From the NCBI GenBank assembly GCA_963833135.1, contig CAWHWW010000010.1:16822-80821 (forward strand): 64,000 bases of DNA, written 5' to 3'. Positions 3,233-64,000 of the stretch are shown one piece after another (within the stretch, counting starts at the first letter, position 1; the number at the start of each line of letters is the position of its first letter). The notes below the pieces were generated by a model that was not told where the DNA came from, searched no databases, and saw only the letters and a program-made list of their open reading frames with translations. Source of the DNA: an uncultured cyanobacterium. Its GTDB lineage: Bacteria; Acidobacteriota; Vicinamibacteria; Vicinamibacterales; UBA2999. The translations under genes and the position numbers were made by a program.

Positions 3233-6200
3233 ATGCAGTGGCTGGCAGCCCTCTGCGTCCGGCGTCCCGTCTTCGCGTGGGTGCTCGTGCTCTCGCTGAC
3301 CGTGGTCGGCCTGTTCGCCTTCGGCCAGCTGGGCGTCGATCGCTTTCCGAACGTCGACGTCCCGACCATTTCGGTCACGACCCGGCTGCCCGGCGCCGCG
3401 CCGGAGCAGATCGAGACCGAGGTCACCGACAAGATCGAGGAATCGGTCAACACCATCAGCGCCATCGACACGCTGAGCTCGACCTCGTCCGAGGGCATCT
3501 CGCAGGTCGTCGTCTCGTTCAAGCTCGAGAAGGACGCCGACATCGCGGCGCAGGAAGTTCGCGATCGCGTCAACCGCGTCATGCCGCAGCTGCCGCGCAC
3601 GGTGCTGCAGCCGACCGTCGAGAAGCTCGATTTCACCGCCGCGCCGGTGATCACGGTGGCGGTGACGGCGGACAAACCGGTGCGCGACATCACCGAGTTC
3701 GCCGATCGCGTCCTCCGCCGCCGGCTCGAAAGCTCCGACGGCGTCGGCCAGGTGGTGGTGATCGGCGGCCGCAAGCGCCAGGTCAACCTGTGGCTCGATC
3801 CCGCACTGCTGCGCGCCCAGCGCTTGTCGGTGAACGACGTGGCGCGCGCGCTGCAATCGCAGAACGCCGACGTGCCCGGCGGCCGCATGGACCAGGGCGG
3901 GCAGACGGTGACGCTGCGCACGCGCGGACGCATCGAGACGATCGACGGTTTCGGCGACGTGGTCCTTCGCGAAGTCGACGGCCACCCGATCCGGCTGCGG
4001 GACGTCGCCCGCGTCGAGGACGGCATGGCCGAGCCGCGAACGCAGGCCAGCGTCAACGGCGACGCCGACGGTGCTGCTGCAGATCCGCAAGCAGTCCGGC
4101 ACCAACACGGTGGAGGTCGCGGCGAACGTGAAACGCCGCCTCGCCGAGCTCGAACCGATCCTGCCGCCCGGCTATCAGCTGCGCATCGTCCGCGACGAAG
4201 CGCAGTTCATCGAGGCCTCGATCGCCAGCGTGCAGGAACACCTGATCGTCGGCTCGATCCTCGCCGCCATCGTCGTCTTCGTGTTCCTCGGCAACTTCCG
4301 CTCCACGATGATCGCGGCCATCGCGATTCCGACCTCGATCGTCGCGACCTTCGCGCTGATCTGGTACATGGGCTTCACGCTCAACATGCTGACCATGCTG
4401 GCGCTGACGCTCTCGGTCGGCATCGTCATCGACGACGCGATCGTGGTGCTCGAGAACATCTATCGGTTCATCGAAGAGAAGGGCATGCCGCCGCTGCAGG
4501 CGGCCGTCGAAGCGACGCAAGGAGATCGGCCTCGCGGTGATGGCCACCACCCTGTCGCTCGTGGCGATCTTCGCGCCGGTGGGCTTCATGAGCGGCATGG
4601 TCGGCCGCTTCATGCAGAGCTTCGGCTTGACGATGGCGTTCGCGGTGCTGGTGTCGCTGTTCGTGAGCTTCACGCTGACGCCGATGATGTCGGCGTACTG
4701 GCTCAAGGCGCTGCCGAAAGACGCCCGAGCACGATTCCAAGCACAACCGGCTGTTCGACCCGCTCGATCGCGGCTACACGCGCCTGCTCGAATGGGCGAT
4801 GGCGCATCGCGGCCTGGTGGCGGTCGCGACCGTGCTGGTGCTGCTGTCGAGCGTGCCGCTGTTCATGATCACCGCCGTGAACTTCACGCCCGAGGACGAT
4901 CAGTCGCAGTTCGACATTTCGTTGCGGGCCCCGGAAGGCACCAGCCTCGCGGCGATGGACGTGCTCGCCAACCGGCTCGGCTGCCGCGGTTCGCAAGATT
5001 CCGGAAGTCGACTTCACGCTCACGACGGTGGCCGGCGACGCGGCCGGCACGCTGAACACGGCGACGATCCTGGTGCGCCTGCATCCCATCGAGGAGCGCG
5101 ATCGCGATCAGTTCGCGGTGATGTCCGAAGTCCGCACCACGCTGCTGCCCGACTACGTGAAGGCCGGCGTCCGAACGGCGGTGTCGCTCGGCGGCGGCCC
5201 GGGCGGCGGTGGCGGCGGCATCCAGTTCATGGTGCAGGGTCCCGACCTGGATCAGCTCGAGAAGTACAGCGAGGCGCTGCTCGACCAAGGCCCGGACGAT
5301 TCCCGGCCTGGTCGACGTCGACACGACTCTCAATGCCGGCAAGCCCGAGATGTCGGTGCTGCTCGATCGCCCGAAGGCCGCCGACCTCGGCGTGCAGGTG
5401 GCGGACGCGGCGGAAGCGCTGCGCCTGCTCGTCGCGGGCGATCAGGTCACGACCTTCAACGAGTCACGGCGAGCAGTACGAGGTTCACCTGCGCGCCGAA
5501 GAGGGCGAGCGCGGCTCGCAAGAAGCAATCGCGGCGCTGCCGGTGCCGTCGTCGCGCCTCGGCATCGTCACGCTCGACAACATTGCGACCTTCGCGGCGA
5601 GCGATTCGCCCGCGACGATCAGCCGCATGGGCCGTCAGCGCCAGGTGACCCTCAACGCCAACATGCTGCCGGGCACGTCACAGGCGACCGCGCAGGAGGC
5701 GATTGCCGCCGCCGCCGCCGAGCTCAACTTCGGCCCCGAGTACCGGGCGGACTTTGCCGGACGCTCGCGGGAGCTGAATCGCACGGCGACGGCGTTCCTG
5801 ACGGCGATCGCGCTGTCGTTCATCTTCATGTACCTGATTCTGGCCGCGCAGTTCGAGTCGTGGCTGCATCCGGTGACGATCCTGCTGTCGCTGCCGCTGA
5901 CGCTGCCGTTCGCGCTGCTCTCGCTCATCATCTTCCAGCAGTCGCTGAACATCTTTTCGGGACTGGGCCTGCTGGTGCTCTTCGGCGTCGTCAAGAAGAA
6001 CTCGATCCTGCAGATCGATCACGCCAACCAGCTGAAGGAACGCGGCATGAACACGCACGACGCGGTCGTCCAGGCGAGCCGCGATCGGCTGCGCCCGATC
6101 CTGATGACGACGCTGGCGTTCGTGGCGGGCATGATCCCGCTGGTCGTCACGACCGGCGTCGGCGCCGCGACCAATCACGCGATCGGCTGGGTCGTGATCG

Positions 6201-6331
6201 GCGGCCAGACGATGGTGCTGCTCGTGACGCTGGTGGTGACGCCGGTCGCGTATTCGCTCTTCGACGAGCTCGCCGTACGAATGCGGCGGCGCTCAGTAAG
6301 TCTTGCGAGCGACCCACTCCCGATAGAGTGA
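3233..6331 (+). CDS. RND efflux permease (AcrB/HAE1-like), frameshifted
   Basis: [105 protein letters not shown]. The protein is spread over ORFs 3233.., 4071.., 4537.., 4799.., 5028.., 5209.. (at least 6 frame changes). Confidence 0.85.
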
Positions 6332-7444
6332 ATCGACGGTGACGTAGCGGCCGTCGTCCTTCGTGATGATGTCCATGCGCAGGAGCGCCGCCAGGGCCGC
6401 TTGAACGGTTGATGTGCCCGGCAATCGATGGCGGGAGCGCACGTCGGCGGACATCAGCTCGCGGCCTTCTTCGATCACGAGCGCGCGAAGCACGGCGCGC
6501 TGCGGCAGCGTCAGCCGCTGCCACGATTCCTCGAACACGGTGTGCTGTTCGCCCAGCAGCCGCGTCAGGGTGACGTGCAGGTCTTCGAGCCCCGCCGGTC
6601 TGTCTTGCCGGCCTCCCTGACGTCGTCCCACGTTTCGTGCGCGAGCCGCTGCACGTCGTAGGGCACGTTGGCGGCGAGATCGACGATCGCCTCGCCGAGC
6701 CCGTCGTCGGGGCGGACGCCGCTGCCGCGGAATCGTTCGTCGATGAAGGCCGCGAAGTCGTCGGGGTTGATCTTTTCGAGGCGCATCACCGGTCCGGCCT
6801 TGTAGAACGGCCGCCGCGGGCCGAGCATGCGCTCCATCAACGACGGCTCGGAACCCGAGAACACATAGCCGACCTGGCGCTGATCCTGGACCGCGGCGCG
6901 GAGCGCGTTTTCGACGGTGCCGCCGTCGAATGCGGTGATCGCCTGGAACTCGTCGAGGGCGATGGCCAGCCGCTGCTTGCGTGCCTGCGCGATCCGCGCC
7001 GGCAGGGCGAACACTTCCGCGGCGACGCGCGCGGTGTCGCGCGCCGAGCGGACGGTCGGGAAGCCGATCGAGAACTTGGTGCGGCCGCTCGGGTCGGCGT
7101 CGAAGCGCAGCTCGGGGTGGATCGCGCCGAGCAGTTCGGAGGTCCAGCCGCTTGAGGCGGCCGGCCGGCGTGTCGGCGGCGATGAGCGCCTGCGCGTAGG
7201 ACTCGAGGAAGCCGATGTAGGAGCTGGACGCGGCGACGGTGACCTCGACGGTCAGGATCTTCTGGCGGGCCAGGCCGCGCATCACGTCGCGGACCAGCGA
7301 CGACTTGCCGTAGCGGCGCGGCGAGATCAGGAAGACCTTCTGGCCGGAGGCGAGGTCGCGGCCGAGCCGCTCGCGCTCGTCCTCGCGGTCGGCGAAGGCC
7401 GCCGCGGTGACGATCTCGCCGTAGACGAAGGGGTTGTCGCCCAT
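6293..7444 (-). CDS. P-loop ATPase (archaeal-type ATPase/DUF234-like) with C-terminal winged-helix-like tail, frameshifted
   Basis: Start at internal ATG 7444 ([27 protein letters not shown]). Walker A-like [13 protein letters not shown]-terminus [25 protein letters not shown]...[15 protein letters not shown]. Middle part lies in ORF 6565..7014. Confidence 0.55.
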
Positions 7445-37803: not shown

Positions 37804-40627
37804 ATGCGTCGCCCTCTGCTGAGCCTCGTCGTCGTGTTCGCCGCGATACTGATCCTGCCGCCTGATGTGCACGCGCAAGCCGCCATTGCCGGAGTCGTGA
37901 AAGACGGGACGGGAGCGTCGCTTCCCGGCGTGACCGTGGAAGCGTCCAGTCCCGCGCTCATTGAACGCGCGCGCAGCGTTGTGAGCGACGGCGCCGGACA
38001 GTACCGCATCATCGATCTGAGCCCGGGCATCTATGACGTGACGTTTACGATCACCGGCTTCAAGCCGATCCGGCGCGCCGGCATCGTGCTCGAGGGCAAC
38101 TTCACCGCACCGGTGAACGTTTCACTCGAAGTGGGCAACGTCAACGAAACCGTCACGGTATTGGGCGAGTCGCCGGTCGTCGACGTGACCAGCAACCGCG
38201 CCACCGTCGTCGTGAACCGCGACATGATGGACGCCATTCCCACCTCGACGCGCAGCTTGCAGGCGCGCGCCTACCTGATTCCCGGCACCATGGTGACGCC
38301 GGTCGGTTCCGGCCAGACCAGCATGACCATTTACGGCTCGCAGGCCGCCGATCAGGTCGTGATGGTGGATGGCATGCGACTCAATCTGCTGGAAGGGCAG
38401 GGACAGTTCAGCGGCATTTACCTGAACGACGGCATGGCCCAGGAGATCTCGTACGACACCGGCGCGCAGAGCGCCGAAGTGGGGCAGGGCGGGCTGCGCG
38501 TGAACATGATTCCGCGTGAGGGCGGCAATCAGTTCAAGGGCATCTTCTTCATCCAGGGCGCCAACGGGCCGCTGGCGAGCGATAACCGGTCGGATGAGGT
38601 CAAGGCGTTTATCCCCGAGCCGCTCGGCCTCGCCTACACGTATGAAATCAACCCGTCGTTTGGCGGTCCGATCATGCGCGACAAGGCCTGGTTCTATTTC
38701 ACCTACAAGCTGTCGGACACCAAGAGCTACACCACGCTGCCGGACCGCAGCCAGGGGACCCAGCAGAACTGGCCCAACTACAGCTACGTGGTTCGCCTCA
38801 CGTGGCAGGCGACCCAGCGCGACAAGTTCCGCGTCTACGTCGACAAGCAGATGAACGGCCAGCGCTATGAAGGCCTCGGCGCCACGACCACGATCGAAGC
38901 GTCTCACCAGCTCTGGACGCCGCGCGGCATGACGCCGCAGTTCAAGTGGATGCAGACCACGACCAACCGGTTGATGCTCGAGGCGGGCATTACGATGTAC
39001 GACCTGAACTTCCGGCGCGAGCCGCAGCCCGGGGTCGGTCCGCTCGACCTGCCGCGATTCGAAGTGGCCTCCGGCGTCAACTCCGGCACCTACGCCGGCA
39101 CGATGGACAGCTGGACGAAGAACTACACGTCGGTGGCGTCGGCGAGCTACGTCACGGGATCGCACACGGTCAAGACCGGCATGAGCTACGGGTGGGGGCG
39201 CCGGATCCGCACGTGGCCCAGTCCCAATCCCGCGGACATCCTGCAGCTGCGCTTCACCAATGGAGCGCCGACGCAGGTGCAGGTCCGCAACACGCCGATC
39301 GACGAGTCGATCGAGCGGATGAACGCCGACCTCGGCTTCTACGCGCAGGACGCGTGGACGATGAACCGCCTGACGCTGAACCTCGGCGCGCGCTACGACT
39401 ACTTCAACGCCGAAGTCCCGGCCTTGTCGGCGCCGGCCAGCTTGTGGGTGGCGGCGCGCGATCGGCCGGCGGTCGAGAACGTGCCGAACTGGCACGACTG
39501 GGCGATCCGCCTCGCGGCGGCCTACGATCTGTTCGGCACCGGCAAGACGGCAATCAAAGTGAACGCGAGCAAGTACGTCGCCTCTGCGGCGCTGGGGTTT
39601 GCCGAAACCTTCAACACACTTGACGGCGGCGACCGAAACGCGCACGTGGAACGACGCCGACGGCAATCGCTCGGTGCTCGACGCGGCCGGCAACCTGCAA
39701 CGCAACGAGATCCTCGGCGGCACCGCCAACTTCGGCCAGGCATCGGGCACCGACCGGCCGGATCCGGCGCTGCAGCGCGAGTACAACTGGGAATACGGCG
39801 CGGTGATCCAGCACGAGCTGTTCCCGCGCGTTTCGGTGTCGGGCGGCTATCACCGCCGGACCTACGGCAACCTTGCCGTCACCGACAACCTGAACCTCGG
39901 CGTGGACGAGTGGTCGCCGTTCACGATTACCGCGCCGCTCGACGATCGCCTGCCCGGCGGCGGCGGTTATCCGATCACGATGTACACGCTGAACGCGAAC
40001 AAGGTCGGCTCGGCCACCGACAACCTGCGCACGTTCTCGACGAAGAACGCGCGCACCTACAACGGCGTGGACCTCAACGTGAACGCGCGTATTGGCGCGT
40101 CGGCGTTCCTGCTCGGCGGCGTCACGCACGAGCGCTCGGTGTCCACCACCTGCGATCAGCGCGACAACCCGAACAGCCTGCGATTCTGCGATTCGGCGGG
40201 CCCCTACCGCACGCTGTTCAAGGTGGCGGGCTCGTACGAGCTGCCGTACAAGATTCAGATCAGCGGCAGCTTCATCTCCCGGCCGGGCATCAGCGTCTCC
40301 GCGAACTACACGGTGACCAGCGCCCTGGCCGGCCGGCCCATCATCGGCAGCACGGCGGGCGCGGCGCAGATCAACGTCAACCTGATCGAGCCGGGCACGA
40401 TGTTCACCGATTACCTCAACACGCTCGATCTGCGCCTGGCGAGGACGTTCACGATTGGCAAGACCAGGCTTCAGGGCCTCCTCGATATCTACAACTTGCT
40501 GAACGCCGGCACGGTGACGACGGTCAATACGACGTTCGGCGCGGTTGCGGCGACCCGCGTCTGGAACAACCCGCAGACGATCCAGACGAGCCGCTACGTG
40601 CGCTTCGGGGCGCAGCTGACCTTCTGA
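37804..40627 (+). CDS. TonB-dependent outer-membrane receptor with N-terminal carboxypeptidase-regulatory-like domain, one frameshift near 39630
   Basis: Signal MRRPLLSLVVVFAAILILPPDVHA. IAGVVKDGTGASLPGVTVEASSP...GQYRIIDLSPGIYDVTFTITGFK. Plug VTVLGESPVVDVTS. Terminal beta-strand RYVRFGAQLTF*. Confidence 0.85.
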
Positions 40628-40703
40628 GGGCTTGCGGGCTTGCGGACGACGGGCTTGCGGGTTGCGGACTTTCGTAAGCCCGTAGCCCGTAAGCCCGTAG
40701 CCC
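40628..40703. repeat. Hairpin of GGGCTTGC-type words versus AAGCCCGT/AGCCCGT words
   Basis: Read directly: GGGCTTGCGGGCTTGCGGACGACGGGCTTGCGGGTTGCGGAC-TTTCG-TAAGCCCGTAGCCCGTAAGCCCGTAGCCC. It starts 1 nt after the receptor stop and lies between convergent genes. Confidence 0.75.
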
Positions 40704-42481: not shown

Positions 42482-43744
42482 CTAAGTCGTCGCAACCGTG
42501 GCGAACGACCGGCGCGCAACGTAAACGAGCGATGCGATTGCGATGCAGGCGCCGAAGCCGAGCCACTCGTCAGTCGTCAGGCCGGTCAGCAGCCACGCGA
42601 TCACGCCGCATGCGAGGAGTGGAACAATCGGTGATTGTCCAAGCTTCCATGCGGCGACCGCGCAGCCGAGGTAGAGCGCCAGCGCCGAGACGTTGGCGAT
42701 GACGGCGAGCTGCTCGAAGGTGCTGGTGATGGCGAGCGCGAGCGTGAGGATTGACTGAGTGATGATCGCCAGTTGCGGCGATCGATAGATCGGGTGCACG
42801 CTCGAGAGCGCGCGGGGCAGATAGCCGTCGCGCGCGAGCGCGTAGACGATGCGCGGGATCGACAGCGTCATGCCGCCGAGATGGCCGAACATCGAGATCG
42901 CGGCGCCGGCAAGCAGCAGCGATCGCGCCCACGCGCCGAGTGATGCGCCGGCCGCATCAGCGAGCGGCACCGCTGATTGCGACAGCGCCGGCGCCGAGAA
43001 TGCCCTGCGCCACGACCTGCAGCGCGATGTAGAGGATGGTGACGCCCACCATCGCCAGCACGATGGCTTTCGGCACGGTTCGTTCCGGGATCGCGCACTT
43101 CGCCGCTGGGGATCAGTGCCACCTCGATTCCCGCGAACGCGAAGACGAGAATCAGCGACATGCGCGCGAAGTCGCCGGCCGCCGGCCACTCGGCGACCTG
43201 GAGATTCTCGGCTCGCACGAAAAACATGCCCGCGACCGCGATCAACACGAGCGGCAGCAGCTTCGCCACCGTCATCGCGGTGTTGAGCCGCACGCCGAGC
43301 GTCACGCCGCGCATGTTGACCCACGACCAGAACCCGAACGCGACGACGAGAATCGCGGCGTGCATCGCCCTGCCGGACAACGCCGGCAGCAGCTCGCCGA
43401 TGCTGAACGCCATCACCGACGACACCGCGGCGGTCGCGAACACGCCGATCATCCACAACAGCACGCCGGAGAGGAATCCCGCGTAAGGCCCGAGAGTGGC
43501 GCCCGACGTAGGCGTACGGACCACCGGTCAGCGTCACGCGCCTGCCGGCGGCGGCAATGCAGGTGACGATCAGGGCCATCGCGACGGCGCAGATCACATA
43601 GGCCACCGGCGCCGCCGCGCCGAGCGAGGCGGCGACCAATGCGGGCACCCGGAAGATGCCGCCGCCGATCATGATGTTGATGATCCCGGCCGCGAGGCCA
43701 ACCGTGCCGATGGCGCGCGTCAGCGATTCCCGTTCGGAATTCAT
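42482..43744 (-). CDS. APC-superfamily amino acid permease, frameshifted
   Basis: [42 protein letters not shown]. Hydrophobic pieces in ORFs 42868..43524 and 42482..43834. Start at Met 43744 is preferred because Met 43768 would overlap the divergent kynB start. Confidence 0.8.
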
Positions 43745-43766
43745 CCGCGCTATTGTGTGCTGAGAC

Positions 43767-44400
43767 ATGTCGCGCCTCTGGGATATTTCGCCGCCGATCT
43801 CGCCGGCCACGCCGGCGTTCCCGGGCGACACCATCTACCAGCAGCGATGGACCGCCGAGATCGGGCCCGGGCTGCCCGGTGAATCGTCAGCGCGATCACG
43901 ATGTCGCCGCACCTCGGCGCGCACGCCGATGCGCCGCTGCATTACGGGCGGGATGCGCGCCGCGATCGGCGCGGTCGATCTCGATCCGTTCCTCGGCCGC
44001 TGCCGCGTCATCCACGCGATCGACAAGGGACCGCTTGATCACGCAGGGCGCATCTCGAACACGCCGTCGGCGAACCTGCCGCCGCGCGTGCTGGTGCGAA
44101 CCTGCGCGAAGGCACCGACCGACGTGGTCGCCGCATTTCTCGGCGTTCGCGCCCGACACGATCGCGTGGCTCGCGTCACTGGGCGTGAAGCTCGTCGGGA
44201 TTGATTCGCAGTCGGTCGATCCCGCCGACAGCAAGACGCTCGACAGCCACCAGCAGCTGCTGACGCACGATCTGCGCGTGCTCGAAAACCTGGTCCTTGA
44301 TGACGTCGACGCCGGCGACTACGAATTGATCGCGCTGCCCCTGAAGCTCACCCAGGCGTGCGCCTCGCCGGTCCGCGCCGTACTGCGCTCGCTGTCATGA
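43767..44400 (+). CDS. kynB: kynurenine formamidase (cyclase-family arylformamidase), frameshifted
   Basis: [28 protein letters not shown]. Hand-read [16 protein letters not shown]-terminus [61 protein letters not shown]. Adjacent to kynU. Confidence 0.75.
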
Positions 44401-44619: not shown

Positions 44620-45931
44620 GTGAACCGGGACGACTGCCTCAACGAGGACGCGCGCGATCAGCTGGCGCCGCTGCGCGAGCTGTTCGCGCTCGATCGCGTC
44701 GATGCCGCAGGCATCATCTATCTCGACGGCAACTCGCTTGGCGTGCTGCCCAAAGCCGCCATCGATCGCGTCCGCGACGTCGTCGAAACCGAGTGGGGCG
44801 TCGGGCTGATTCGCAGCTGGACGGCCGCCGGCTGGATCGATCTCTCGCAGCGCATCGGCGACAAGATCGCGCGGCTCGTCGGCGCGGGAGCCGGCGAGAT
44901 CATCGTCGCCGATTCGACATCGGTGAATCTCTTCAAGGCCCTGAGCGCCGCGGTGGCGCTTCCACCTCCGCGTGGGCCTTCGGCGAGACAGGCTCGCACT
45001 CGGATCCTGTCGGAGCGCACGAACTTCCCGACCGATCTCTACATCGCCGAGACTTTCGCGCGTGAGCGCGGCCTCGAGCTCACGCTCGTCGATCACGAGG
45101 AGATCGCTTCGCATCTCGACGATCGCGTGGCGGTCCTGATGCTGACCCACGCCAGCTACCGCACCGGACGCATGCTACGACATGGCAGCGGTGACCCGGT
45201 CGGCCAGGGATGCGGGCGCGATCGTGATCTGGGATCTCGCGCACTCCGCCGGCGCCGTGCCGGTCGATCTGCACGGGGCCGGCGCGGACATCGCGGTCGG
45301 CTGTGGCTACAAGTACTTGAACGGCGGCCCTGGCGCGCCGGCGTTCATCTGGGTCCATCCGCGCCACACGGAGCGACTGGATCGCGAGAGCTGGCGCCCG
45401 CCACTGTCAGGATGGCTCGGTCACGCGCAACCGTTTGCCTTCGCGCCGCACTATCAGCCCGCGAACGGCATTCAGCGATTCATCTGCGGCACGCCGCCGG
45501 TGCTGTCCATGGCGGCGCTCGAATGCGGCGTCGATACCGTGCTCGCTGCAGGCGATCGCGGCGGCATCGCGGCGATCAGGAGCAAATCGCTGGCGCTGAC
45601 CGACCTGTTCATGCGGCTCGTCGACGAGCGCTGCGCCGGTCACGGTTTCACGATCGTCACGCCTCGCGAACCCGGCCAGCGCGGCAGCCAGGTGTCATCA
45701 GTTGTCGGCGCATCACGCGAGCGCGGAGGGGATGGCTACGCGATCATGCAGGCGCTGATCGCCAAGGGAGTCATCGGCGACTTCCGGCCGCCCGACATCC
45801 TGCGCTTCGGCTTCACGCCGCTCTACACCCGCTTCGTCGACGTGTGGGATGCCGTCGATCGCCTCACGCAGGTGATGACGAGCGGCGAATGGCGCGATCC
45901 GCGCTTCGCAATCCGCGCCGCCGTCACCTAA
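44620..45931 (+). CDS. kynU: kynureninase, one frameshift near 45175
   Basis: GTG 44620. [116 protein letters not shown]. Confidence 0.85.
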
Positions 45932-45937
45932 CCCGAC

Positions 45938-45995
45938 CGCTACTGTCGTTCTACGATCGTTCTAATGGCGTTTCTGCGTAGCGTTCGACGATCGG
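45938..45995. repeat. Tandem CGTTCTA-type words with flanking short inverted repeat (CGCTAC ... GTAGCG)
   Basis: Read directly: CGCTACTGTCGTTCTACGATCGTTCTAATGGCGTTTCTGCGTAGCGTTCGACGATCGG, downstream of the kynU stop. Confidence 0.5.
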
Positions 45996-52500: not shown

Positions 52501-53469
52501 ATGACCTTCAAGACACCGGCGCTGGCCGAAGAGGCTATCGACCCGGACGAGGCGGCGGTCGCGACGGCGTTCGTCGAGTTTCTCAAGGCGACAAGCACGA
52601 AGCATCACCCCACCGGTACGGTCCCGCGATTCAACCAGGGCCGCGCTGCCGGGTGTGTCGAGGCGGAGTTCATCGTGCCTGACGGCTTGCCGCAGGATCT
52701 TCGTGTCGGCCTCTTCGCTCACCCTCGCACCTACAAGGCGCGCATTCGATTCGCGCACGCCTCATCGGAGTCGGACACGGAGCGCGACGTTCGCGGCATG
52801 TCGATCAAGGTTGCAGGCGTGGGTGGCGAGAATCTGACCCCGGGTGTGGCGGACCACGACTTCATCCTGAACAGTCACCCGGTGATGATGGTGGGGCACA
52901 CCAAGGCCTTTCTCGACTTGCTCAAGGCGGTGGAGGAGGGCGGTGCCGCGCAAGGACTGTTCTTCGTCACACATCCGCGCGCCGCGGCCGTGGCGCTGGC
53001 CTCGCGGCAGCATGCCACCAGTCACCTCGAGATTCCCTACTGGAGCACGACGCCCTACCTCTTCGGGCCGGGCCGGGCGGTCAAATACAGCGTGCGTCCC
53101 GCTTCGCCTCGAAAGACGCCGCTGCCGGACCCGTTGACCGACAACTACTTGCGGGAGCGCCTGGTCGCCCATCTTGCGCGGGAAGAAGCTCGTTTCGAGT
53201 TTCTCGTGCAGTTTCAGACCGACGGCCGGAAGATGCCGATCGAAGACGCGAGCGTGGAATGGAAGGAGGACGACTCCGCGTTCCGCGCGGTCGCCGAAAT
53301 TCGCATCCCCGTCCAAACGCTCGAAGGTCCGAGCGCCGCGTCCTGCGAGCAGCTTTCGTTCAATCCCTGGCACGCCCCGGCGGATCACCGCCCGCTCGGC
53401 GACTTCAACCGCGCGCGCCGTGAGATCTATCGCGCGATGGCGGCTTTTCGTGGGACGCCACGGGCCTGA
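52501..53469 (+). CDS. small catalase-fold haem protein (mini-catalase, y4iL/srpA/AOS-like clade; not a canonical catalase)
   Basis: AAGGAGAGGG RBS. RDVRGMSIKV (cf. catalase D.RGFA.KF). DHDFILNSHPVMMV (cf. D.vgNN.PVFF). Proximal-Tyr-like NRARREIYRAMAAFR. The catalase VHAKG position reads FNQGR by eye. Intact 322 aa. Confidence 0.6.
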   Translation: MTFKTPALAEEAIDPDEAAVATAFVEFLKATSTKHHPTGTVPRFNQGRAAGCVEAEFIVPDGLPQDLRVGLFAHPRTYKARIRFAHASSESDTERDVRGMSIKVAGVGGENLTPGVADHDFILNSHPVMMVGHTKAFLDLLKAVEEGGAAQGLFFVTHPRAAAVALASRQHATSHLEIPYWSTTPYLFGPGRAVKYSVRPASPRKTPLPDPLTDNYLRERLVAHLAREEARFEFLVQFQTDGRKMPIEDASVEWKEDDSAFRAVAEIRIPVQTLEGPSAASCEQLSFNPWHAPADHRPLGDFNRARREIYRAMAAFRGTPRA

Positions 53470-55091: not shown

Positions 55092-56505
55092 ATGCCTGAA
55101 CTGAGGAAAGTCTTCATCAGCCACTCTCACAAGGACGAACCACTGGCCTCGGCGTTCCGTGACACGCTGAAAAACATCTTCAACAACGTCGACGTCGCTT
55201 TTTCGTCTGACAAGACCGTTGGAGGAGGACCCTCGTCCGGGTCGAACTGGCTCGAGTGGATACACACTCGCATGCGCGACTGTCAGGAGTCACTGCTGTT
55301 GCTGACGCCGTATTCGATACGGCAGCCCTGGCCGATGTGGGAGGCGGGCGCCGTCGGCGGGATGGCGATCATCAATCCGGATCCGGCTGCCGCCCCGTTG
55401 AAGGTGGTGACGCCGATTCGCTTCAACATCGCGCAGGAAGCGCTGCCCGGCCCTTTCGTCGTCACGCAGGCAATCGACGGGCGGGATCCGGAATCGCTCC
55501 GAAAGCTGCTCGGCGATCTGATGAAGCGCTATGACTACGCGGGAACGCCGCAGGCGACCTATAGAGCCGTGCTGAACGATCAGATTCCTTCACTGGCCCA
55601 GACGATCAAAGGCTGGCTCGAAAACTCTCCGCCCATGGTGACCGAGGGGATGGTGATGGAGTGGTGCAGCCGGCTCGATGAACTGCGCGACCAGCGGCGC
55701 AGCTCGGAGGTCCGCTACCTGCACCACTGGATCCGCCTGATGTACGAGGGCCCGCAACAGGAGGAAGCGGACCGGCAGACCTGGAGCCAGACGCCGCGCC
55801 GGGAAACGTGGGACCTGCGCCTGCATTTGCGGCTGGCGCAGAACTACACGATCGCGCAACAGTACAAGGAAGCCATCGAGCAGTATTTGCTCGCGGCGCA
55901 ACTCGCGCCACTCGACGCGTTCGTCCTGCACCGTCTCGCCCAGGTCTATCTCGACGTCGCGGATGCGGACGCTTCGCGGCGGACGATCGATCAAGATCCT
56001 GAACCTCGACAAGGACGCCTTGAAATGGAATGCCGAGATCGCCGGCCTCGAGGGCCGTTATTGGAAGGACCAGGGCCGGAGGCATCAGGCCGAGAGCAAG
56101 CCCCAACAAGCGCAGGAGTCGTTCAGGAAATCGCTGCAGGCGTACGAGGCGGCAATGAACATCGACGGAGTCAAAGTTGATTTCTACATGGCCGACAACG
56201 TCGGGCAGTTGAGCCTGACGCTCGGCGACATCCCGGCTGCCAAGAGAGCCTACGAGCGCGCGCGCGTCGCTCTCGAGAATGTGACCCGCGAGACTGAGAG
56301 CGTGTGGAGCCTTGCGACGCGTGCGACCGCCGCACTGGTGCTGGAGGTTGATGACAAAGAGGCGCTCGACTACCTTGCCCGCATTCGGGAGTTCGAGCCG
56401 ACCGATTCCCAGAAGGCCAGCATCTCCCGGGGGCTGCAGCTGATCAAAAAGGCGCTCGACAAGACGGACGCCGACTATCGGCGCTGGGTCGGTCTGCTCG
56501 GATAG
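55092..56505 (+). CDS. TIR-domain protein fused to a TPR/DUF4071-like helical repeat module, one frameshift near 55985
   Basis: TIR: RKVFISHSHKDEPLASAFRDTL...SLLLLTPYSIRQPWPMWEAGA. Repeats: LRLAQNYTIAQQYKEAIEQYLLAAQLAP, VLHRLAQVYLDV, AEIAGLEGRYWKDQG (resembles the DUF4071 GR.YKD signature), SFRKSLQAYEAAM. Confidence 0.7.
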
Positions 56506-56506
56506 A

Positions 56507-56536
56507 CGGCGCCCGCTACCGTGCGGGCTCCTGCCG
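56507..56536. terminator. Short GC hairpin between convergent operons (GCCCGC-TACCGT-GCGGGC)
   Basis: Read directly at 56511-56528, with flanking CGGC/GCCG extension. It sits in the 33-nt spacer between stops 56505 (+) and 56539 (-). No clear U-tract. Confidence 0.35.
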
Positions 56537-56538
56537 AT

Positions 56539-57608
56539 TCAGTCGCGCTCGCGGGGCATGATCTTGGCTTTCTTTTTTCTGGCCTGCCGCGCGGCGCGGC
56601 GAACCGGTTTCCGGACGGCCCGCGCGCGTGTCGAGGGAGGCGCGATCGTTCGCAGCCGCGGCGCCACACGGGCGGTGGTATCGGCCGCCGGATCCAATAC
56701 GTAGCGGGGCAGGATCCCCTGGGTATAGAGCAACCCGTAGACCAGCGCCTGATTGGTCTTGTGGCCCGGCTTGAACACGTTGTTCTCGAGCCACTCCTTC
56801 GCGTGTGCGAGGCCCCGTCCGAGATCGATGTCGACATCGGCCGAGTGCACCATCGACGCGGGGTCCCCGCCAGGCAACGGCATTGCGTCCTTGGAGAACG
56901 ACAGTTGAACGTTTCCTTCGGCGAACCGCGTGTGCTTCCAGCTGTCGGGATGCGCGGGCAGATCGGCCAGGTCACCGCCGGGGGCGCCATGTCCCGGCGC
57001 GCCGGCAAACTCGCTTGCGCGCGGCATCCGCGCCTTGAGCGCGGCGTATCGAAAAACACGAACGCCCGATCGACGGCGACGTGACGCACGCCGCGCACGA
57101 ATCCGAGGAGCGGGGCCCCATCGAGAACGGTTTCGCGCAGCTTGGCCTCGATGTTCAGAAAGGCCATCTTGGCGGCCGACGTCCAGCGCACGAAAGGCCG
57201 CAGCGTCGATGCCGCTTTTTGGCGCCACAAACGGCGACGCGATCTGCTGCGAGACGATCGAAGCCGTTCGGGAGATCGGTCGTTCCGGGTGCATCGGGCA
57301 CCAGCATCAGCCGCAATACCAGGTCGTCGCCTTCGACGTTCTCCGGAACCCGAATGAAGTCCCGGCGCCGGATCAGTTGCCACGCCGGCCGATGTTGAGG
57401 CGCCGAAAACGTGATGCCGTACACCTGTCCGGCATCGAAGGGCAGCGCGAGCCGGAGCTCGAGCGTCGATTCGTCGGTCTTTCCCTGGAAGAGGAGACGC
57501 GGACCGCCGGAGGCGAAGACGTCGGAGACGCGGATGCTCAGCGGCACCGCCGCGCCAGAGATTTCGATCGCAGCCGTAGAGGATGACGGTCAGCCGTTTC
57601 TCGGTCAC
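56539..57608 (-). CDS. unrecognised protein, last gene of the gasdermin operon, basic C-terminal tail, at least 3 frameshifts
   Basis: GTG 57608 lies 5 nt after GGAGG, which follows the gasdermin TAA. Pieces: PLSIRVSDVFASGGPRLLFQGKTDESTLELRLALPFDAGQVYGITFSAP; AAKMAFLNIEAKLRETVLDGAPLLGFVRGVRHVAVDRAFVFFDT; HSADVDIDLGRGLAHAKEWLENNVFKPGHKTNQALVYGLLYTQGILPRYVLDP; tail RKPVRRAARQARKKKAKI. Confidence 0.5.
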
Positions 57609-57618
57609 CGTCGCCTCC

Positions 57619-58428
57619 TTACTGCGCCACGCGCACGAAGGCGCCGCGAGTCTCGAGAAAGACCGGGCGGCGGGCGGCCCCGCCGGCCGGAGGAAAGGCC
57701 CGCGCCGCCGCTTCTCCGGCGCCCAGTTGCTGCGTCGTCAGGAACTGACCGGATTCGTCGAACACGAGTTGCACGGCCTGAAACGCGAACGCCACCGGTA
57801 CGGCGCCCTCGAAGGCGATTTTCGATTCCATTCCGCTGGCCGTGCCGACGTTGACGCTGCCGCCGACGGCTTGCTGAATGACCGGCACGTCGACCTTGAC
57901 CGTGGCGCCGTTCTCGCCCTGCGCCGCGACGACGATCTTCTTGGTCTTCAAGACCGACGTCACGACATAGACCTCGTCATCGAGCAGCTTCTCCAGCGTG
58001 CCGGCCGGAATGTGCGGGCTGATCCGTCCCGCCTTGACGAATTTTTCGACCGCAAGGACATCGACGACGTCCTCCATCACCGCGGCGTATTGGAAGGTCA
58101 CGGTGCGCGCCTTGTTGAAGGCGACGTCGAGACCAAGCTTGCCGCCGCCGAGCGCCGAGATGAACGCACCGAGGATACTCAACCCGATCGCGACGTTGAC
58201 CTTGCTGGTTTCCTTCCCCTCGATGTCGATGCCCGGATTTCCGTCCCGCCGCACATCAGGTGCGGCGATCTCGCCGGCGTCGACGAGATCCGGCACCATG
58301 CCGAGACGCGTCAGATCCTTCCCGTCACGGTGCATCAGCTCGAGCGGTTGCGCCGATGCGCGCGGAAAACGAAACACACTGAACCCGAAGCTGCGCAGGA
58401 ACGTGATTGACTGATCAGGTCTCGACAT
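57619..58428 (-). CDS. bacterial gasdermin (bGSDM) homolog
   Basis: Intact 269-aa ORF from ATG 58428. FLRSFGFSVFRFPRASAQPLELMHRDGKDLTRLG, VAIGLSILGAFISALGGGKLGLDVAF, VPVIQQAVGGSVNVG, IAFEGAVPVAFAFQAVQLVFDESGQF match the bGSDM consensus as I remember it (GLSILG..I.A.GG.KLGLD; VP.IQ..VGG.V.V; EG.VP..F.FQAV.L). Followed by a ~35-aa tail. It lies 8 nt downstream of a caspase-like gene. Confidence 0.75.
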   Translation of the reverse strand: MSRPDQSITFLRSFGFSVFRFPRASAQPLELMHRDGKDLTRLGMVPDLVDAGEIAAPDVRRDGNPGIDIEGKETSKVNVAIGLSILGAFISALGGGKLGLDVAFNKARTVTFQYAAVMEDVVDVLAVEKFVKAGRISPHIPAGTLEKLLDDEVYVVTSVLKTKKIVVAAQGENGATVKVDVPVIQQAVGGSVNVGTASGMESKIAFEGAVPVAFAFQAVQLVFDESGQFLTTQQLGAGEAAARAFPPAGGAARRPVFLETRGAFVRVAQ

Positions 58429-58436
58429 GTGACACC

Positions 58437-59279
58437 TCAGGCGGAAAACAGCGGCGTTTCGAACCGGGCGGTCCGGCCTTCGAGCTGCGGCACCTGCTCG
58501 AACTTCCTGGTCTTGAGTACGACAGCAGCGCGATCGTGCAGCTGTTTGTAGGTGAGCGCGGCCTTGCCCTTGCGCATGGCCTCGACGAGCGCGAAGGTGA
58601 GCGCGCCGTTGTAGCGGCCGTTGATGAAGGCGTCGGCCGAGGTCTGCGTGTCGCGGCACCCGGTGATGAGCACTTCGGGAAGGTCCGCCTTCACGATGTC
58701 CTTGGTCTTGCGGGCCGCCCGCGAGCGAGCGCCGGAGCTCGCTCGTGACCTTTCTCGGCAGACTCCGTCCGGATTCCACCGCTTTCAGGCTCGCAGGGAC
58801 TCGGGAGGTAGCGTTGCCTGACGGGCGCGTCGGGCGGCAGGAAGGCGCGCGTGTTGGTGCCCGAATGGCAGCAGTCCATGATGACCGTGAGGTTGACGCC
58901 GTCTTTCATCCCGTCGAACGTGGTGCGCAGCCAGTCGTCGCGGAGCGGATCGTCCCAGTCAAGATCGGTCGGGCAGAGGATCTCGTCGCGGCCGTCGGCC
59001 TCGTCGCTGTTGTCGTCGGGCACGTTCGAACCGTGGCCGGAGTAATGAAGGACGGCGACATCGCCCTTCTTCGAGTCGCGCAGCAAGCGCCTTGATTCCG
59101 GCCTCTATCGCCTTCTTCGTTGCCTCGAAGTCGGTGAGCACGGCGATGTCGCTCTTCTTGAAGCCGTAACACTCGACGAGCGCGGAGCTCAGGTCCTCCA
59201 CGTCGTTGACGCACCCCCGGAGATCGGCGCCGTCTATCCGGTATTTGTTGATTCCAATCAGCAACGCTCGCTTAGCCAT
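58437..59279 (-). CDS. caspase-fold (peptidase C14) protease, 2 frameshifts
   Basis: MAKRALLIGINKYRIDGADLRGCVNDV. His in VAVLHYSGHGS. Cys in LTVIMDCCHSGT. C-terminus VLITGCRDTQTSADAFINGRYNGALTFALVEAM. Pieces lie in ORFs 58959.., 58691.., 58437... Confidence 0.8.
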
Positions 59280-61182
59280 TCACACCCTCCCACTCCAACG
59301 GAATGCCGTAACCAGCTGGTCATCGGCGACGGAATCTGATTTGCGCCGGATCGGTCAGCAGGGCGCCCACGCCCTTCGTCGTCACCGTCGAACGGATCAA
59401 GCTCGCTGAGTGAACCGAACGAAAGCCCGGCGCGCTCTTCGATGGTTGCGATCCGTGTCTGCGAGGTCTTGTGCTTCCCGAAGACGAACTCCTCGTCGCG
59501 CAGAAAATCTTCCTGCGACATCGTGTAGCCGGTCGCACACAGCTCCCTGGTCTCGTCGTGGATGAAGGCGATGACTTTCCAGAACGAGCGTGGAATCAGG
59601 ACGCCGTCACGGATCGGATCGTCGGGCATCAGGAACGGTCCCGTCATGACGGAGATGCGCATGTCATCGGACCGCGCGTTGTCGAGCGCGTAGCTCTCGA
59701 GCGCGAGCCAGATGCCGCCGTTGAACGGCTGCATCTGGGGCACGGTGTTCGTCACGTGCATCGAGTCGCTGTTGCCGAGCGCCGCCTCGTCGGGATCGCC
59801 CCAGACCGGGTCTTCGCGACGCGTCATGTGGCCGCGCGAGAACTTCGGCTCGCTCCCATAGCACTCGTCCTTGATTTGCTGCCTGACGGGAATGCGAGGA
59901 TCGAGGCGCCACGAAGGACGCTTGAACCGGCGAGGCGTTGCGCCGTCGATGTTGCCGGCAGCTGAAGATACACAGACGCCGGCTGCGGCTCATCACCACC
60001 GAGAAGTGCTGATACTTGAGCTCCGATTCCTGAGCACCATTCCAGGGGAATGTGAGGACGTCGGCCGCATTGTTCACCAGCGGGCAGTGGCACATCCACT
60101 CCGACAAACCGCGGGTCATACCCCTTGCGCCCGATGTAATCCTCGGGCACGCCTTCGACGAACACCTCGTAACCGGCAGGCGTCCCGGCGTCCGGTGTCG
60201 GCGTGACGATGGCGTGAGGAGTGACGGGACCCTGGGGCGGGCGGCTCGAGGGCTTTCCGGGCTTCGGATGTCGCACTTGTTCGAGGCGCTCCGCAACGAC
60301 CGTCATCGGTACGGCGTAGTTGGTTTCGAGAAAGCGGCCCGCGAAGTGCAATCCGACGGCGTGCCCGGTCCCCAGATCGAGCACGACCGAACCCGAGTTC
60401 CCTCCAAGCGTCGAACAGTCGTGGAGCAGGACATCCGTTTTCGCCTCCGTCACTTGACCCGGAGCCAGGCGCTTCTTGTCGAACACGTCGCCGAAGATCG
60501 ACTGCACCAACTGCTCGTCGGGCGCTCGGCTGTCCCTGGCGGGATATCCGATCACGGCCACCTGCTGCGCGGCGTGAGGCGGTGACACCGAGAGCGGGAT
60601 CGGAGGCGCGAGCGCCTGACCGCGCGATTCGCCCACGCGCAGGAGCGCGAAGTCCGGGCCATCGTCGTCTTCGATGTGCAGGATCTCGACGATCGGGAAC
60701 GAGAGGCGTTCCGGCCGGCCCACTTCTTCGAGGAAGTCGATGGACACGCCGGATGGTGATCCGTCTTCCTTCTTGAACATGAAACGATCGCGCCCTCGTT
60801 GCCCGAACTCACGCGCCACGTGACGATTCGTCACGATGGTGTCCTTCTCCACGAGCCAGCCCGTGCCGACGTACGGCACGCCCGGACGACCGGTGACGTT
60901 GATGCGTCCGACGGCACCCGCCGCGCGCTGCAGCTGCGCGCTCGAGGCCTGAAGACGGGTGCGCCAGACCTCGCTTTCGCTTTCCCTGAATTCCAGTTGT
61001 GCCGCGCCGCCGACGACCGCCAGAACCGGCCGTCCCACGCGAAGCACGATATTTCGAAGGCTCTGACCCGCATCGCGAAGCGAGCGGGTACCGCTGATCT
61101 GTCGGAGTTCGTCGGCGAGCAGCCGATCAGCCGTGTCGAGGGTCGAGATGAGTTGCTTCAGCCATTCGTCGAGGTCTCCCAT
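59258..61182 (-). CDS. fusion protein: N-terminal helical region + trypsin-like serine protease + DNA/RNA non-specific (NucA/EndoG, beta-beta-alpha-Me) endonuclease; at least 2 frameshifts
   Basis: Protease triad: TIVTNRHVAREF (H), GPDFALLRV (D), CSTLGGNSGSVVLD (S). Nuclease: KYQHFSVVMSRSRRLCIFS, hand-read AAGNIDGATPRRFKRPSWRLDPRI...EPKFSRGHMTRREDPVWG, NTVPQMQPFNGGIWLALESYAL. The stop is uncertain (59258 or ~59320). Confidence 0.75.
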
Positions 61183-61202
61183 CGCAGCCTTGCCAGAAGC
61201 GC

Positions 61203-62526
61203 CTATTGAAAGGTCTGCGGACGATAGACGGACAGAATCTGCTCGATCATCGCTTCACGCGACGGGTAGCGGCTTTCGTCGTAGCAGCCGAGCGGGTTCT
61301 CCGGTGCATTCACCAGGCAGCGGTTGCAGTACGTGCACGGGTTCTCCGGCCGGCCGATCCCGTTCGCGAACTGCTGCACGAGATCGTTGTTGGCGATCAG
61401 CGGCCGCGCAATGGTCACCGCGTCGCAGTCGCCACGAGCGATGGCGTCTTCGATGATCGCGGCCGTCTGGAATCCGCCGGTGCACAGCACCGGAATGCTG
61501 CCCACCGCCTGCTTGATCGCGCGGGCATCGTGGAGATTGAGTCCTTCAATCTTGTCCTTCGGACCGCGCGCGTTTTCCCATCGTTTCCTGAACAGTTCCC
61601 CGGTGATCCGCCCGCTGAACAAGATGTAGTTTCTGAGCGCCAGCACGCCGCTCGAGATCAGGCTGTCGTACGTCTTTCGCAGCTCGTCCACCGGCAGATC
61701 GCCGGCCGGATTCTTCGGGTGTGGAAACGAGCTGCCCGGACGACACGTGGATGGCGTCCACGCCGTCTTCCTTCAGCCACTGACAGACCTGGACGGAATC
61801 CTCCACGGTGTTGCCGGGCTTCTCGTCCGACAGCATCGCGTCGTTGAATTCCGTCGCGCTGATCTTCATCTGCAGGTGGAAGTCCCGCCCCACGCGCGCG
61901 CGGATTGCCTGGACGATCTCGCGCACGAACCGTGCGCGGTTGGCGAGCACGCCGCCGTATTCGTCGGTGCGATCGTTGATTGCGGAGCTGAGAAACTGCG
62001 TGATCAAGTAGCCGTTCGCGCCGTGCAGCTCCACGCCGTCGAGGCCCGCCTCGCGCGCGCGTCGTGCACCCTCGGCGAAGGATTGGATCGCTTCCTTGAT
62101 CTCGGCGAGCGTCATCGCTTCGCATTCGAAGCCATGTAGCGGATCACGTTTCCCCGTCGAGCTGAGACCCTTCGGATAGTCGAAGGTCGCGATGTCGCGT
62201 TGCCGGCCGCCATGGCTGAGTTGGAGGATGTACTTGCAGTCGTGTTCGTGCACGGCGTTGCCCAGCGCACGCCAGAACGGAATGCGATCGTCGCTCACGA
62301 TCGTCGCGTAATTCGGCAGGATGCGCCCGCGCTGATGCACCGGCACGAACGACGACACGATGGCGCCGACGCCTCCGCGCGCGAACTTGACTTCCCAGTT
62401 GATGCGCGCCTGCGCGCCAGTGCCATCGTAGTTGTCGAAGCGGCCCGCGATGTTCGATCGCAGAATGCGATTCTTCACCGTCAGATTGCGGAAGCTCAGG
62501 GGCGAAAAAATGCGTTCGTATGGCAT
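61203..62526 (-). CDS. Old Yellow Enzyme-family NAD(P)H:flavin oxidoreductase, frameshifted
   Basis: ATG 62526. MPYERIFSPLSFRNLTVKNRILRSNI, ILQLSHGGRQ, GLDGVELHGANGYLITQFLSSAINDRTDEYGG, DAVTIARPLIANNDLV. C-terminal piece in ORF 61203..61691. Its stop is only 20 nt upstream of the protease-nuclease start. Confidence 0.85.
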
Positions 62527-62636
62527 GGCGGCGCGAATTATATGCGCAAAAGGCGGGTGCACGAATTTCGATCTGTGGCATAGTCTGCGATTCTGCACGC
62601 TGATCATCGAGCACGTGGTTCTGCTGCGAGGGATGA

Positions 62637-63800
62637 ATGACGGACAAGCACCTGAAGGGACCGTGGTACAGGCAGCCGAAGTTGACCGCGATGCCGCAAC
62701 TCGTCGAAATTCGCAACCAGCTCAGGCGTGAGAATCTGCACGATACGGAAGAATCGCCACTTGAAAAGCGAGTTGATACTGCTGAGCCGGATGCCGCGCT
62801 GCGGGAAGAGCGCACCGTCGATGGCTCGTACAACGATCTCGAGCTCCACGCCAAGGCGAAGCTCATCAACTCAGCGCTCATGGCCAAGATCCATACCGTC
62901 GAGTGGACTCCGGCCATCCTGCCGCACCCGGTCACCCAGCTCGCAATGCACGCAAATTGGTACGGCCTGGCGGGCGACGAGCTGCAGGAAGTCCTGAAGT
63001 TTCTAAACGACAACGAGATTCTCGGAGGCATCGTCGGGTCGAAATACGATCACCACACGGCTCCCTACGCGTTCACCGAAGAGTTCGTATCCGTGTACCG
63101 GATGCACCCGCTCATTCCCGACGACGTGGCCATCAGGTCGTTGGACAACGATGCCGTCGCGGAAACGATCGAGCTGCCCGAGCTGTCCGGCCGTAAGGCT
63201 CCCGGCGTCGTGAACCGGATAGGCATGTCCGATTTGTTCTACTCGTTCGGACGGTGTCACCCCGGCGCCATCACCCTGCACAACTACCCGAAGCATCTGC
63301 AGAATCTCAGTCGCGACAACGGTGAACATCTCGACCTCGCCGCCGTAGACATCTTCAGAGATCGGGAACGTGGCGTGCCCCGGTACAACCAGTTCCGCCG
63401 GCTCTTTCACAAGGACCCGGTGAAGTCGTTCGAGGAGCTGACGGACAACCCGGTGTGGCGCGAAGAAATTCGACGCGTCTACGGAAACGATGTGGAGAAG
63501 GTCGACTTGATGACCGGGCTCTATGCCGAACCGCTGCCGCCCGGATTCGGTTTTAGCGATACGGCGTTCCGCGTCTTCGTCCTCATGGCGTCACGACGCC
63601 TGAAGAGCGACCGCTTCTTTACGAACGATTATCGCGCCGAGGTATATACCGAATTCGGACTGAACTACCTGAAGGACAACTCAATGTTAACGGTCTTGAA
63701 GCGACACCATCCGGATTTGGCGCCTGCCCTCCGGGGTGTCGACAATGCCTTCAAGCCATGGCGTAAGGTCGAAGCAGGGGGTGCACATGTCGCGTCGTAA
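62637..63800 (+). CDS. alpha-dioxygenase/COX-type (animal haem peroxidase superfamily) fatty-acid haem dioxygenase homolog, apparently lacking ~230 aa of the N-terminal catalytic half
   Basis: LINSALMAKIHTVEWTPAIL, HHTAPYAFTEEFVSVYRMHPLIPD (cf. plant alpha-DOX PYSLTEEFVSVYRMH.LLP with catalytic Tyr and proximal His), AAVDIFRDRERGVPRYNQFRR, LMASRRLKSDRFFT. The N-terminal LRRENLHDT...RTVDGSYNDLE joins directly to LHAKAKLIN. Confidence 0.7.
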   Translation: MTDKHLKGPWYRQPKLTAMPQLVEIRNQLRRENLHDTEESPLEKRVDTAEPDAALREERTVDGSYNDLELHAKAKLINSALMAKIHTVEWTPAILPHPVTQLAMHANWYGLAGDELQEVLKFLNDNEILGGIVGSKYDHHTAPYAFTEEFVSVYRMHPLIPDDVAIRSLDNDAVAETIELPELSGRKAPGVVNRIGMSDLFYSFGRCHPGAITLHNYPKHLQNLSRDNGEHLDLAAVDIFRDRERGVPRYNQFRRLFHKDPVKSFEELTDNPVWREEIRRVYGNDVEKVDLMTGLYAEPLPPGFGFSDTAFRVFVLMASRRLKSDRFFTNDYRAEVYTEFGLNYLKDNSMLTVLKRHHPDLAPALRGVDNAFKPWRKVEAGGAHVAS

Positions 63801-64000
63801 TCGCCCGTCATCGTTTGAACCGTCGGATCTCAACGACCGCTGCTGTGTTGCGCCGAGTCCTCAACTGCGGGAACGTATCCGCGAAGTCTTGCGGAGCATC
63901 AACGAAACTCCCGGGGTCGCCGCTCGTGGCCGCGTCGTGTTCCAGCCACAGCAACGTCCCGGCTTCAACGATGGTTTGATCATTCCCGGCACCGAGTTTC
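63787..64000 (+). CDS. partial ORF running off the right edge, unrecognised
   Basis: Hand translation from ATG 63787, which overlaps the previous stop by 14 nt: MSRRNRPSSFEPSDLNDRCCVAPSPQLRERIREVLRSINETPGVAARGRVVFQPQQRPGFNDGLIIPGTEF... There is no stop before 64000. It is not in the ORF table. Confidence 0.3.
   Translation, partial: MSRRNRPSSFEPSDLNDRCCVAPSPQLRERIREVLRSINETPGVAARGRVVFQPQQRPGFNDGLIIPGTEF

Follow-up and report, generated by a model that had tools for sequence, protein, structure and literature searches.

The evidence moderately favours a reading in which the old yellow enzyme (OYE) gene at the head of this gasdermin array is an intact gene belonging to a haem-oxygenase cluster, with two death modules stacked at its 3' end and a five-gene transcript running from its promoter. 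The home context of the OYE would be a widespread cluster that includes RoxA-like di-haem cytochromes, an animal-type haem peroxidase, and a mini-catalase; unsaturated lipids or olefins are the probable substrates of its haem oxygenases, and the enone or enal products would then be reduced by the OYE. Within a single Vicinamibacterales clade, the 3' end of the OYE appears to have acquired two death modules arranged head to tail, the first a stand-alone protease-nuclease (PN) and the second a block of caspase, gasdermin, and a last gene of no assigned family. Given spacers of 1-40 nt, a single transcript starting at the OYE promoter most likely covers all five genes. Such a layout is explicable without a dedicated biochemical role of the OYE in gasdermin activation, although a functional tie between the OYE and the death modules is possible. 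The window (the whole stretch of DNA that was analysed, 64,000 nucleotides) contains the following genes and spacer at this locus.

61203..62526, minus strand: OYE-family FMN reductase gene (Pfam Oxidored_FMN, PF00724; about 440 aa), with its frame broken by one extra G
61183..61202, minus strand: 20-nt spacer that separates the OYE stop from the ATG of the PN gene (61182)
59320..61182 (approximate), minus strand: PN gene (Pfam Trypsin_2 and Endonuclease_NS, with an N-terminal helical region)
58437..59279, minus strand: caspase-like protease gene (Pfam Peptidase_C14), with its frames broken
57619..58428, minus strand: bacterial gasdermin gene (PADLOC bGSDM model, E = 1.1e-66, full length)
56447..57608 (end approximate), minus strand: last gene, without a family match in Pfam, NCBIfam, or PADLOC, a tblastn homologue of a 388-aa protein of locus L019, with its frames broken
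62637..63800, plus strand: divergent haem peroxidase gene (An_peroxidase), covering Pfam profile positions 247-522 only

The OYE gene starts at 62526 with an N-terminal MPYERIF that is common to all orthologues, and ends in a TAG stop codon at 61205-61203. Its N-terminal piece scores 194 bits against Oxidored_FMN (cut-off 27), and an intact orthologue scores 201 bits. The catalytic HxxNGY motif (a His/Asn pair and the Tyr proton donor) is found as ELHGANGYL in the translation from the window and in the orthologues, and HGANGY aligns to the same motif of structures 8e5h and 3gr7. Among solved structures, the best matches are 1z41, 3gr7, and 2hs6 (YqjM/thermophilic-type OYEs and plant OPR3; E = 1e-36 to 1e-39). 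The top NCBIfam matches are the N-terminal FMN domains of FadH/BaiCD/TMADH type, at 190 bits against a curated cut-off of 825, and no NCBIfam equivalog cut-off was reached. Intact orthologues of 440-441 aa, 85-91% identical, are present at four loci (L019, L021, L022, and L023). The window gene probably encodes a working OYE-family flavin reductase, a putative ene-reductase. Two features within the gene bear on its function and its integrity.

61230-61300: C-terminal Cx2Cx2Cx10C motif PCTYCNRCLVNAPENPLGC, like the 4Fe-4S site of FadH/TMADH-type flavoenzymes
61733..61735, minus strand: frameshift site, a GGG run with one extra G, located by alignment against three orthologues

The protein stops about 30 residues past the cysteine motif, and the FAD and NAD(P)H domains are absent, which suggests an external redox partner, perhaps the neighbouring cytochromes.

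As assembled, the gene is not one open frame from 61203 to 62526, a point missed by the original prediction. The interval is 1324 nt long and not divisible by 3, the translation runs into stop codons past residue ~265, and the extra G in the GGG run splits the gene into ORFs at 61546..62607 and 61203..61691. A frameshift of this kind, next to a peroxidase gene with a large internal deletion, would be expected if the OYE were a true pseudogene in a decaying locus together with that truncated peroxidase. However, when the whole 6.4-Mb assembly was segmented by codon usage, 2,161 candidate coding-frame switches emerged, about one per 3 kb, a switch being counted where coding moves to another frame on one strand although the frame it leaves has no stop codon for over 40 nt. 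Housekeeping genes are affected as well, and within the window Pfam matches show frame splits in AcrB (2141-6342), a TonB-dependent receptor (37804-40677), an amino-acid permease (42482-43834), and kynureninase (44620-45981). The PN gene is read in four frame pieces; its orthologue at L023 is a single 646-aa ORF, and the intact caspase orthologues of L019 and L023 have 286-287 aa. The OYE error itself sits in a homopolymer, and with the two frames joined, the gene has a dN/dS of 0.08-0.10 against the four intact orthologues, equal to that of the orthologues among themselves. Because of the genome-wide rate of about one break per 3 kb and this dN/dS, the break in the OYE is attributed to sequencing error, and the frame breaks of the region, including the extra G, are almost certainly assembly indels. 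The frame-switch scan, the split housekeeping genes, and the dN/dS rule out a pseudogene as the main explanation, and a decaying OYE is highly improbable. The assembly consists of 23 contigs with an estimated completeness of only 80.7%, and at about one indel error per 3 kb its apparent pseudogenes are unreliable, which is a practical warning for its users.

The 20-nt gap between the OYE stop at 61203 and the PN start at 61182, on the same strand, was borne out by the coordinates, as was the claim that no terminator lies at this junction: a consensus scan found no terminator-like site there, and the 131-nt junction RNA folded no better than its shuffles (z = 0.10), with no hairpin. Further down the array, the spacers are ~40 nt (PN to caspase), 8 nt (caspase fragments to gasdermin, so that the gasdermin gene adjoins a protease gene), and 11 nt (gasdermin to last gene). 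All five genes lie on the same strand, with short spacers and no internal terminator, as in a single operon. The only sizeable spacer is the 110 nt before the OYE, in agreement with the earlier claim that this is the one promoter-type gap of the array. A riboswitch or leader RNA was considered and rejected, as Rfam gave no match at E <= 0.1 within 56000-64000. The upstream spacer holds two elements.

62537..62542, minus strand: TATAAT, a -10-like box 10 nt before the OYE ATG, kept at the same position in L107, L021, and L023
62557..62598, minus strand: upstream box with a weak inverted repeat and a partly conserved TGCCAC..TCGAA motif

The position of the TATAAT box would imply a near-leaderless OYE mRNA. 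At no more than one mismatch to TATAAT, with T1, A2, and T6 kept, it is the sole such hexamer on the minus strand from 62640 to 56400, that is, in the 6.2-kb array. Beside it lies the motif GATTCTGCCACGAA, common to L100, L021, L022, L023, and L107. The imperfect inverted repeat described by the original prediction can be traced as GTGCAGAAT/ATTCGTGCAC (62598-62590 and 62566-62557), a 4+5-nt match with a bulge only; it is absent from the repeat-search output and is not kept as a repeat in the orthologous spacers. As a candidate operator it was set aside as weak and unconserved. A promoter embedded in the OYE 3' end was also rejected, since dS does not fall over the final 50 codons of the OYE, where such a promoter or element would be expected to lower it.

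Because of the short spacers, the lack of a terminator, and the only conserved -10 box lying before the OYE, co-transcription is likely, and one transcript from the OYE promoter through to the last gene is the most economical model. These spacers, the conserved gene order, and the single -10 box fit the operon-like reading (OYE, PN, caspase, gasdermin, last gene) put forward earlier. Defence modules usually have their own regulation. The genes might be accidental neighbours, with the death genes transcribed from their own promoter of an unrecognisable type and OYE transcription ending or becoming uncoupled before them. The autonomy of the PN gene elsewhere is compatible with such separate transcription, as is the scope of the promoter scan, which covered sigma-70-type sites only; Acidobacteriota promoters are poorly known, and non-sigma-70 promoters within the array are possible. 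Yet a promoter would not fit into OYE-PN spacers of 1-24 nt, synonymous divergence does not fall in the last 50 OYE codons, the junction forms no hairpin, and no second -10-like box occurs in the 6.2 kb, so separate transcription is unlikely.

Searches of species-representative genomes with gasdermin, OYE, and PN as queries showed that the array is conserved in related metagenome-assembled genomes (MAGs). The full order of OYE, PN, caspase, gasdermin, and last gene is found in two Acidobacteriota MAGs (L015/L100 and L019/L107), while L022 has OYE and PN up to the contig end. In L023 (3492-5083), the order is OYE, PN, caspase, and last gene, with the gasdermin absent and a gap of only ~130-200 nt between caspase and last gene, indicating that these two genes can persist without the pore-former. 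The OYE-PN spacers in the orthologous MAGs are 1, 15, 21, and 24 nt, against 20 nt in the window, and dS between array-bearing genomes is 0.6-1.3, which indicates that the OYE-PN junction is old. The OYE linkage to such operons thus recurs in other genomes. The six OYEs (that of the window and those of five MAGs) form one clade with 99% SH-aLRT, and the array order is conserved within that clade only.

Of the OYEs, that of L021 is the nearest to the L019 enzyme (91%), yet it is followed by no cassette. In L021 (4772-4830), ATGAGAAACCTCGACGCGTGGCTGAGGCCCCTCATC lies 21 nt past the OYE stop and encodes MRNLDAWLRPLI, the first 12 PN codons, and similarity stops there. This PN remnant shows that the cassette is ancestral, was later lost in L021, and is dispensable. 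The remnant is followed by DUF5995, a patatin-like gene, and then a TPR-S protein gene; the cassette of L021 is best read as deleted, with other conflict genes now filling the site. An account of the array as an island beside a conserved gene, with L021 as the empty site, was rejected, because the remnant shows loss and not a site that had never gained the cassette. A possible horizontal transfer of the OYE and cassette between GTDB families was considered for the window genome (family f1) and G346 (family f4). Their island genes are 66-88% identical; the island is flanked in both genomes by an M6 gene, 76% identical, and a lipase-like gene, 67% identical. The few other G346 genes near the island have their best matches on other contigs of the window genome, at 45-72%, in a comparison that covers little G346 sequence. 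No tRNA gene or GC anomaly was found at an island edge, and the region as a whole shows no mobile-element marker or composition shift.

Both death modules also occur apart from the OYE. The PN gene is single-copy per genome, and its homologues at 17 loci of other phyla lack OYE, peroxidase, caspase, and gasdermin genes up to 8 kb away and share no conserved neighbour whatever; the hosts include Nocardia, Chloroflexota, Rokubacteria, Holophagales, Planctomycetota, and Myxococcota. Lacking a conserved neighbour, the trypsin-Endonuclease_NS fusion may be a single-gene conflict system. Fusions of this type, of ~640-700 aa, are widespread (L108, L110, L112-L123). At L016/L133, the caspase, gasdermin, and last gene stand together without PN, and the OYE is not directly upstream but elsewhere. 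Among 401 genomes in the order, 29 carry a bacterial gasdermin; 13 of the 29 have no OYE orthologue, and in 6 of the 29 the OYE is unlinked, that is, on another contig or more than 1 Mb from the gasdermin. No OYE lies within 10 kb of the gasdermin at loci L103-L106. Because the PN gene and the caspase-gasdermin block occur without the OYE, and genomes with a bacterial gasdermin often lack the OYE or have it unlinked, the OYE, as judged from gene content, is no defining component of the gasdermin system. The membership of the OYE in a gasdermin module, as first proposed, is not upheld; its conserved partners are instead haem oxygenases, and both the PN gene and the block of caspase, gasdermin, and last gene occur without it.

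These partners were identified in a survey of 80 loci whose OYE orthologues share 57-100% identity. In 38 of the 80, a haem peroxidase gene (An_peroxidase) is found no more than 6 kb from the OYE, in arrangements that include peroxidase, OYE, and mini-catalase in that order (10 loci), OYE followed by peroxidase, and divergent pairs. Catalase-like (mini-catalase) neighbours were found at 10 of 80 loci. By clustering of flanking ORFs, one cluster of RoxA-like di-haem cytochrome c is present at 46 of 80 loci and a second at 31 of 80, so that at least 46 of 80 have such a neighbour overall. The RoxA-like genes often come directly after the OYE, also in cyanobacteria, Nitrospirota, Gemmatimonadota, and Alphaproteobacteria, and the haem-oxygenase neighbours as a whole span taxa that include cyanobacteria and Actinomycetota. 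GMC and PQQ oxidoreductases, an SDR, and Tle1-like lipases are also recurrent at OYE loci. From this domain content we read the OYE as supplying the reductase step to a group of clustered haem oxygenases whose substrates would be unsaturated lipids or olefins.

The gene divergent from the OYE in the window, previously called dioxygenase-like, proved to be a haem peroxidase lacking ~195 internal residues: by tblastn, the loss is in frame and corresponds to residues 116-309 of the 636-aa L021 orthologue, so that the distal-haem half is gone. The orthologous peroxidase is intact in L021 and L015 and absent in L019. A full-length peroxidase paralogue is present elsewhere in the window genome (contig C14, 87036-88778). 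After the window peroxidase, an M6 (immune inhibitor A-like) metallopeptidase gene (window 63736-64000; L011, 8558-10411) extends up to the contig end; in L019, where the peroxidase is gone, the M6 gene abuts the OYE directly. A mini-catalase-like gene at 52501-53469 is 54-63% identical to the gene directly after the OYE at 10 other loci; in the window it lies 8 kb from the OYE, with the modules for TIR/caspase and gasdermin in between, as though an earlier oxygenase cluster now housed the death modules.

At 18 of 85 loci, spread over two phyla, death-type modules (PN, caspase, lipase-CHAT, gasdermin) adjoin the OYE, and they do so in several arrangements; on the OYE tree at least 10 state changes are needed to account for the death-type neighbour at these 18 of 85 tips. 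Genes near OYE loci encode TPR-S, CHAT, EAD1-trypsin, caspase, and TIR domains, and the arrangements outside the window include the following.

G102 (L131, contig C37, 1945-13478): RoxA-like, OYE, peroxidase, PN, GMC oxidoreductase, metallophosphoesterase, EAD1-trypsin, and alpha/beta hydrolase genes in that order; these eight are co-directional with gaps of 12-34 nt after PN, and a gasdermin gene is convergent
G421: gasdermin ... mini-catalase, the latter divergent from the OYE, which is followed by peroxidase, TPR-S-trypsin, PN, and TIR
G294: caspase, gasdermin, last gene, lipase-CHAT, OYE, and peroxidase in that order
L073 and L075: lipase-CHAT-TPR-S protein gene divergent from the OYE
Three 3-Mb Actinomycetota genomes (L080, 4025-12237; L087; L096): a trypsin protease gene and then a nuclease gene, divergent from two to three OYE genes that are followed by LCAT-lipase-CHAT

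In the three Actinomycetota genomes, the PN-like nuclease and the CHAT gene are each the sole copy per genome; in L096, the CHAT gene lies between the OYE array and the RoxA-like gene. Ten death-module queries, run against the 6.4 Mb of the window genome, had matches at just two loci. Death modules adjoin the OYE far more often than expected by chance (18 of 85 loci), and this frequency and the sole-copy genes of the Actinomycetota hint at something beyond passive neighbourhood.

A functional coupling, in which the OYE/haem-oxygenase cluster would be the chemical arm of the death systems, making, sensing, or detoxifying lipid-derived electrophiles that accompany lipase, protease, or gasdermin activation, is therefore possible, though less likely than the main reading. 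It draws on the varied adjacency of the OYE to PN (directly, or through the peroxidase as in G102 and G421), to the caspase-gasdermin-last gene block through CHAT (G294), and to divergent CHAT genes (L073 and L075); on the single-copy nuclease and CHAT genes flanking the Actinomycetota OYEs; on the oxidoreductases interleaved with death proteases at 12-34 nt gaps in G102; and on the two loci to which matches to the ten death-module queries are restricted in the window genome. However, 67 of 85 OYE loci are free of such modules, and the majority of PN loci lack an OYE. L021 dropped the cassette and kept the OYE, while L019 dropped the peroxidase and kept the cassette. None of the OYE, peroxidase, mini-catalase, RoxA-like cytochrome, CHAT protein, and last gene is represented by a PADLOC model, and a literature search found no paper combining 'bacterial gasdermin' with 'old yellow enzyme' or otherwise linking these oxidoreductases to death systems. 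Shared residence in variable islands could yield the same pattern. The proposed link of the OYE-headed array to electrophile or oxidised-lipid chemistry is accordingly kept as a tentative lead from recurrent gene neighbourhood. A more specific proposal, which we regard as doubtful, is that this OYE subfamily, with the peroxidase, RoxA-like cytochromes, mini-catalase, and CHAT-fused lipases, forms an oxylipin-type arm of caspase/CHAT/PN/gasdermin conflict systems. In such an arm, unsaturated fatty acids released by the lipases would be converted to reactive enones by the oxygenases, and the OYE would tune or quench these enones; if true, the scheme would parallel, in prokaryotes, the lipase-oxygenase-OPR cascades in eukaryotic immunity and cell death.

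The favoured reading, an intact OYE with stacked death modules on one transcript, has consequences of its own. Gasdermin-protease operons are known, but we know of nothing on their expression or metabolic input. If the promoter of a redox gene drives the array, the death genes would be expressed whenever the lipid-oxidation cluster is induced; if the neighbourhood also reflects function, oxidised-lipid chemistry would be tied to regulated bacterial cell death, as it is in plants and animals.

Several known systems offer a comparison. Like the YqjM/thermophilic-type OYEs and OPR3, the window OYE has the HxxNGY catalytic motif; it exceeds them in length by ~100 residues and differs in carrying an insertion past residue ~266 and the C-terminal four-cysteine motif. 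It shares with the FadH/BaiCD/TMADH Fe-S flavoenzymes a CxxCxxC...C motif directly past the barrel, but it ends after that motif without FAD and NAD(P)H domains and scores far under their cut-offs. Oxylipin pathways are formed by alpha-dioxygenase, AOS, and OPR3 in plants and by di-haem diol synthases in Pseudomonas. The gene set around the OYE, with a dioxygenase-type haem peroxidase, a catalase-fold mini-haem protein, di-haem cytochromes, lipases, and an OYE reductase, resembles these pathways, and the likeness is one of domain content. The TPR-S/EAD conflict systems of multicellular prokaryotes (Kaur et al., PMC7159879, PMC8195603) are matched by the TPR-S, CHAT, EAD1-trypsin, caspase, and TIR domains of OYE-locus neighbours; unlike in the OYE loci, an OYE/haem-oxygenase companion is undescribed there, and peroxidases are unmentioned (0 occurrences). 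In the survey of bacterial gasdermins, 43 of 50 adjoin proteases (Johnson et al., bioRxiv 10.1101/2021.06.07.447441; Science 2022), and its account of their neighbourhoods names no oxidoreductase (0 occurrences; bioRxiv 10.1101/2021.06.07.447441). Like these gasdermin-protease operons (Johnson et al.), the window gasdermin follows a Peptidase_C14 caspase-like protease by 8 nt; unlike them, the array is preceded by the PN and OYE genes and followed by the homologue of the 388-aa protein.
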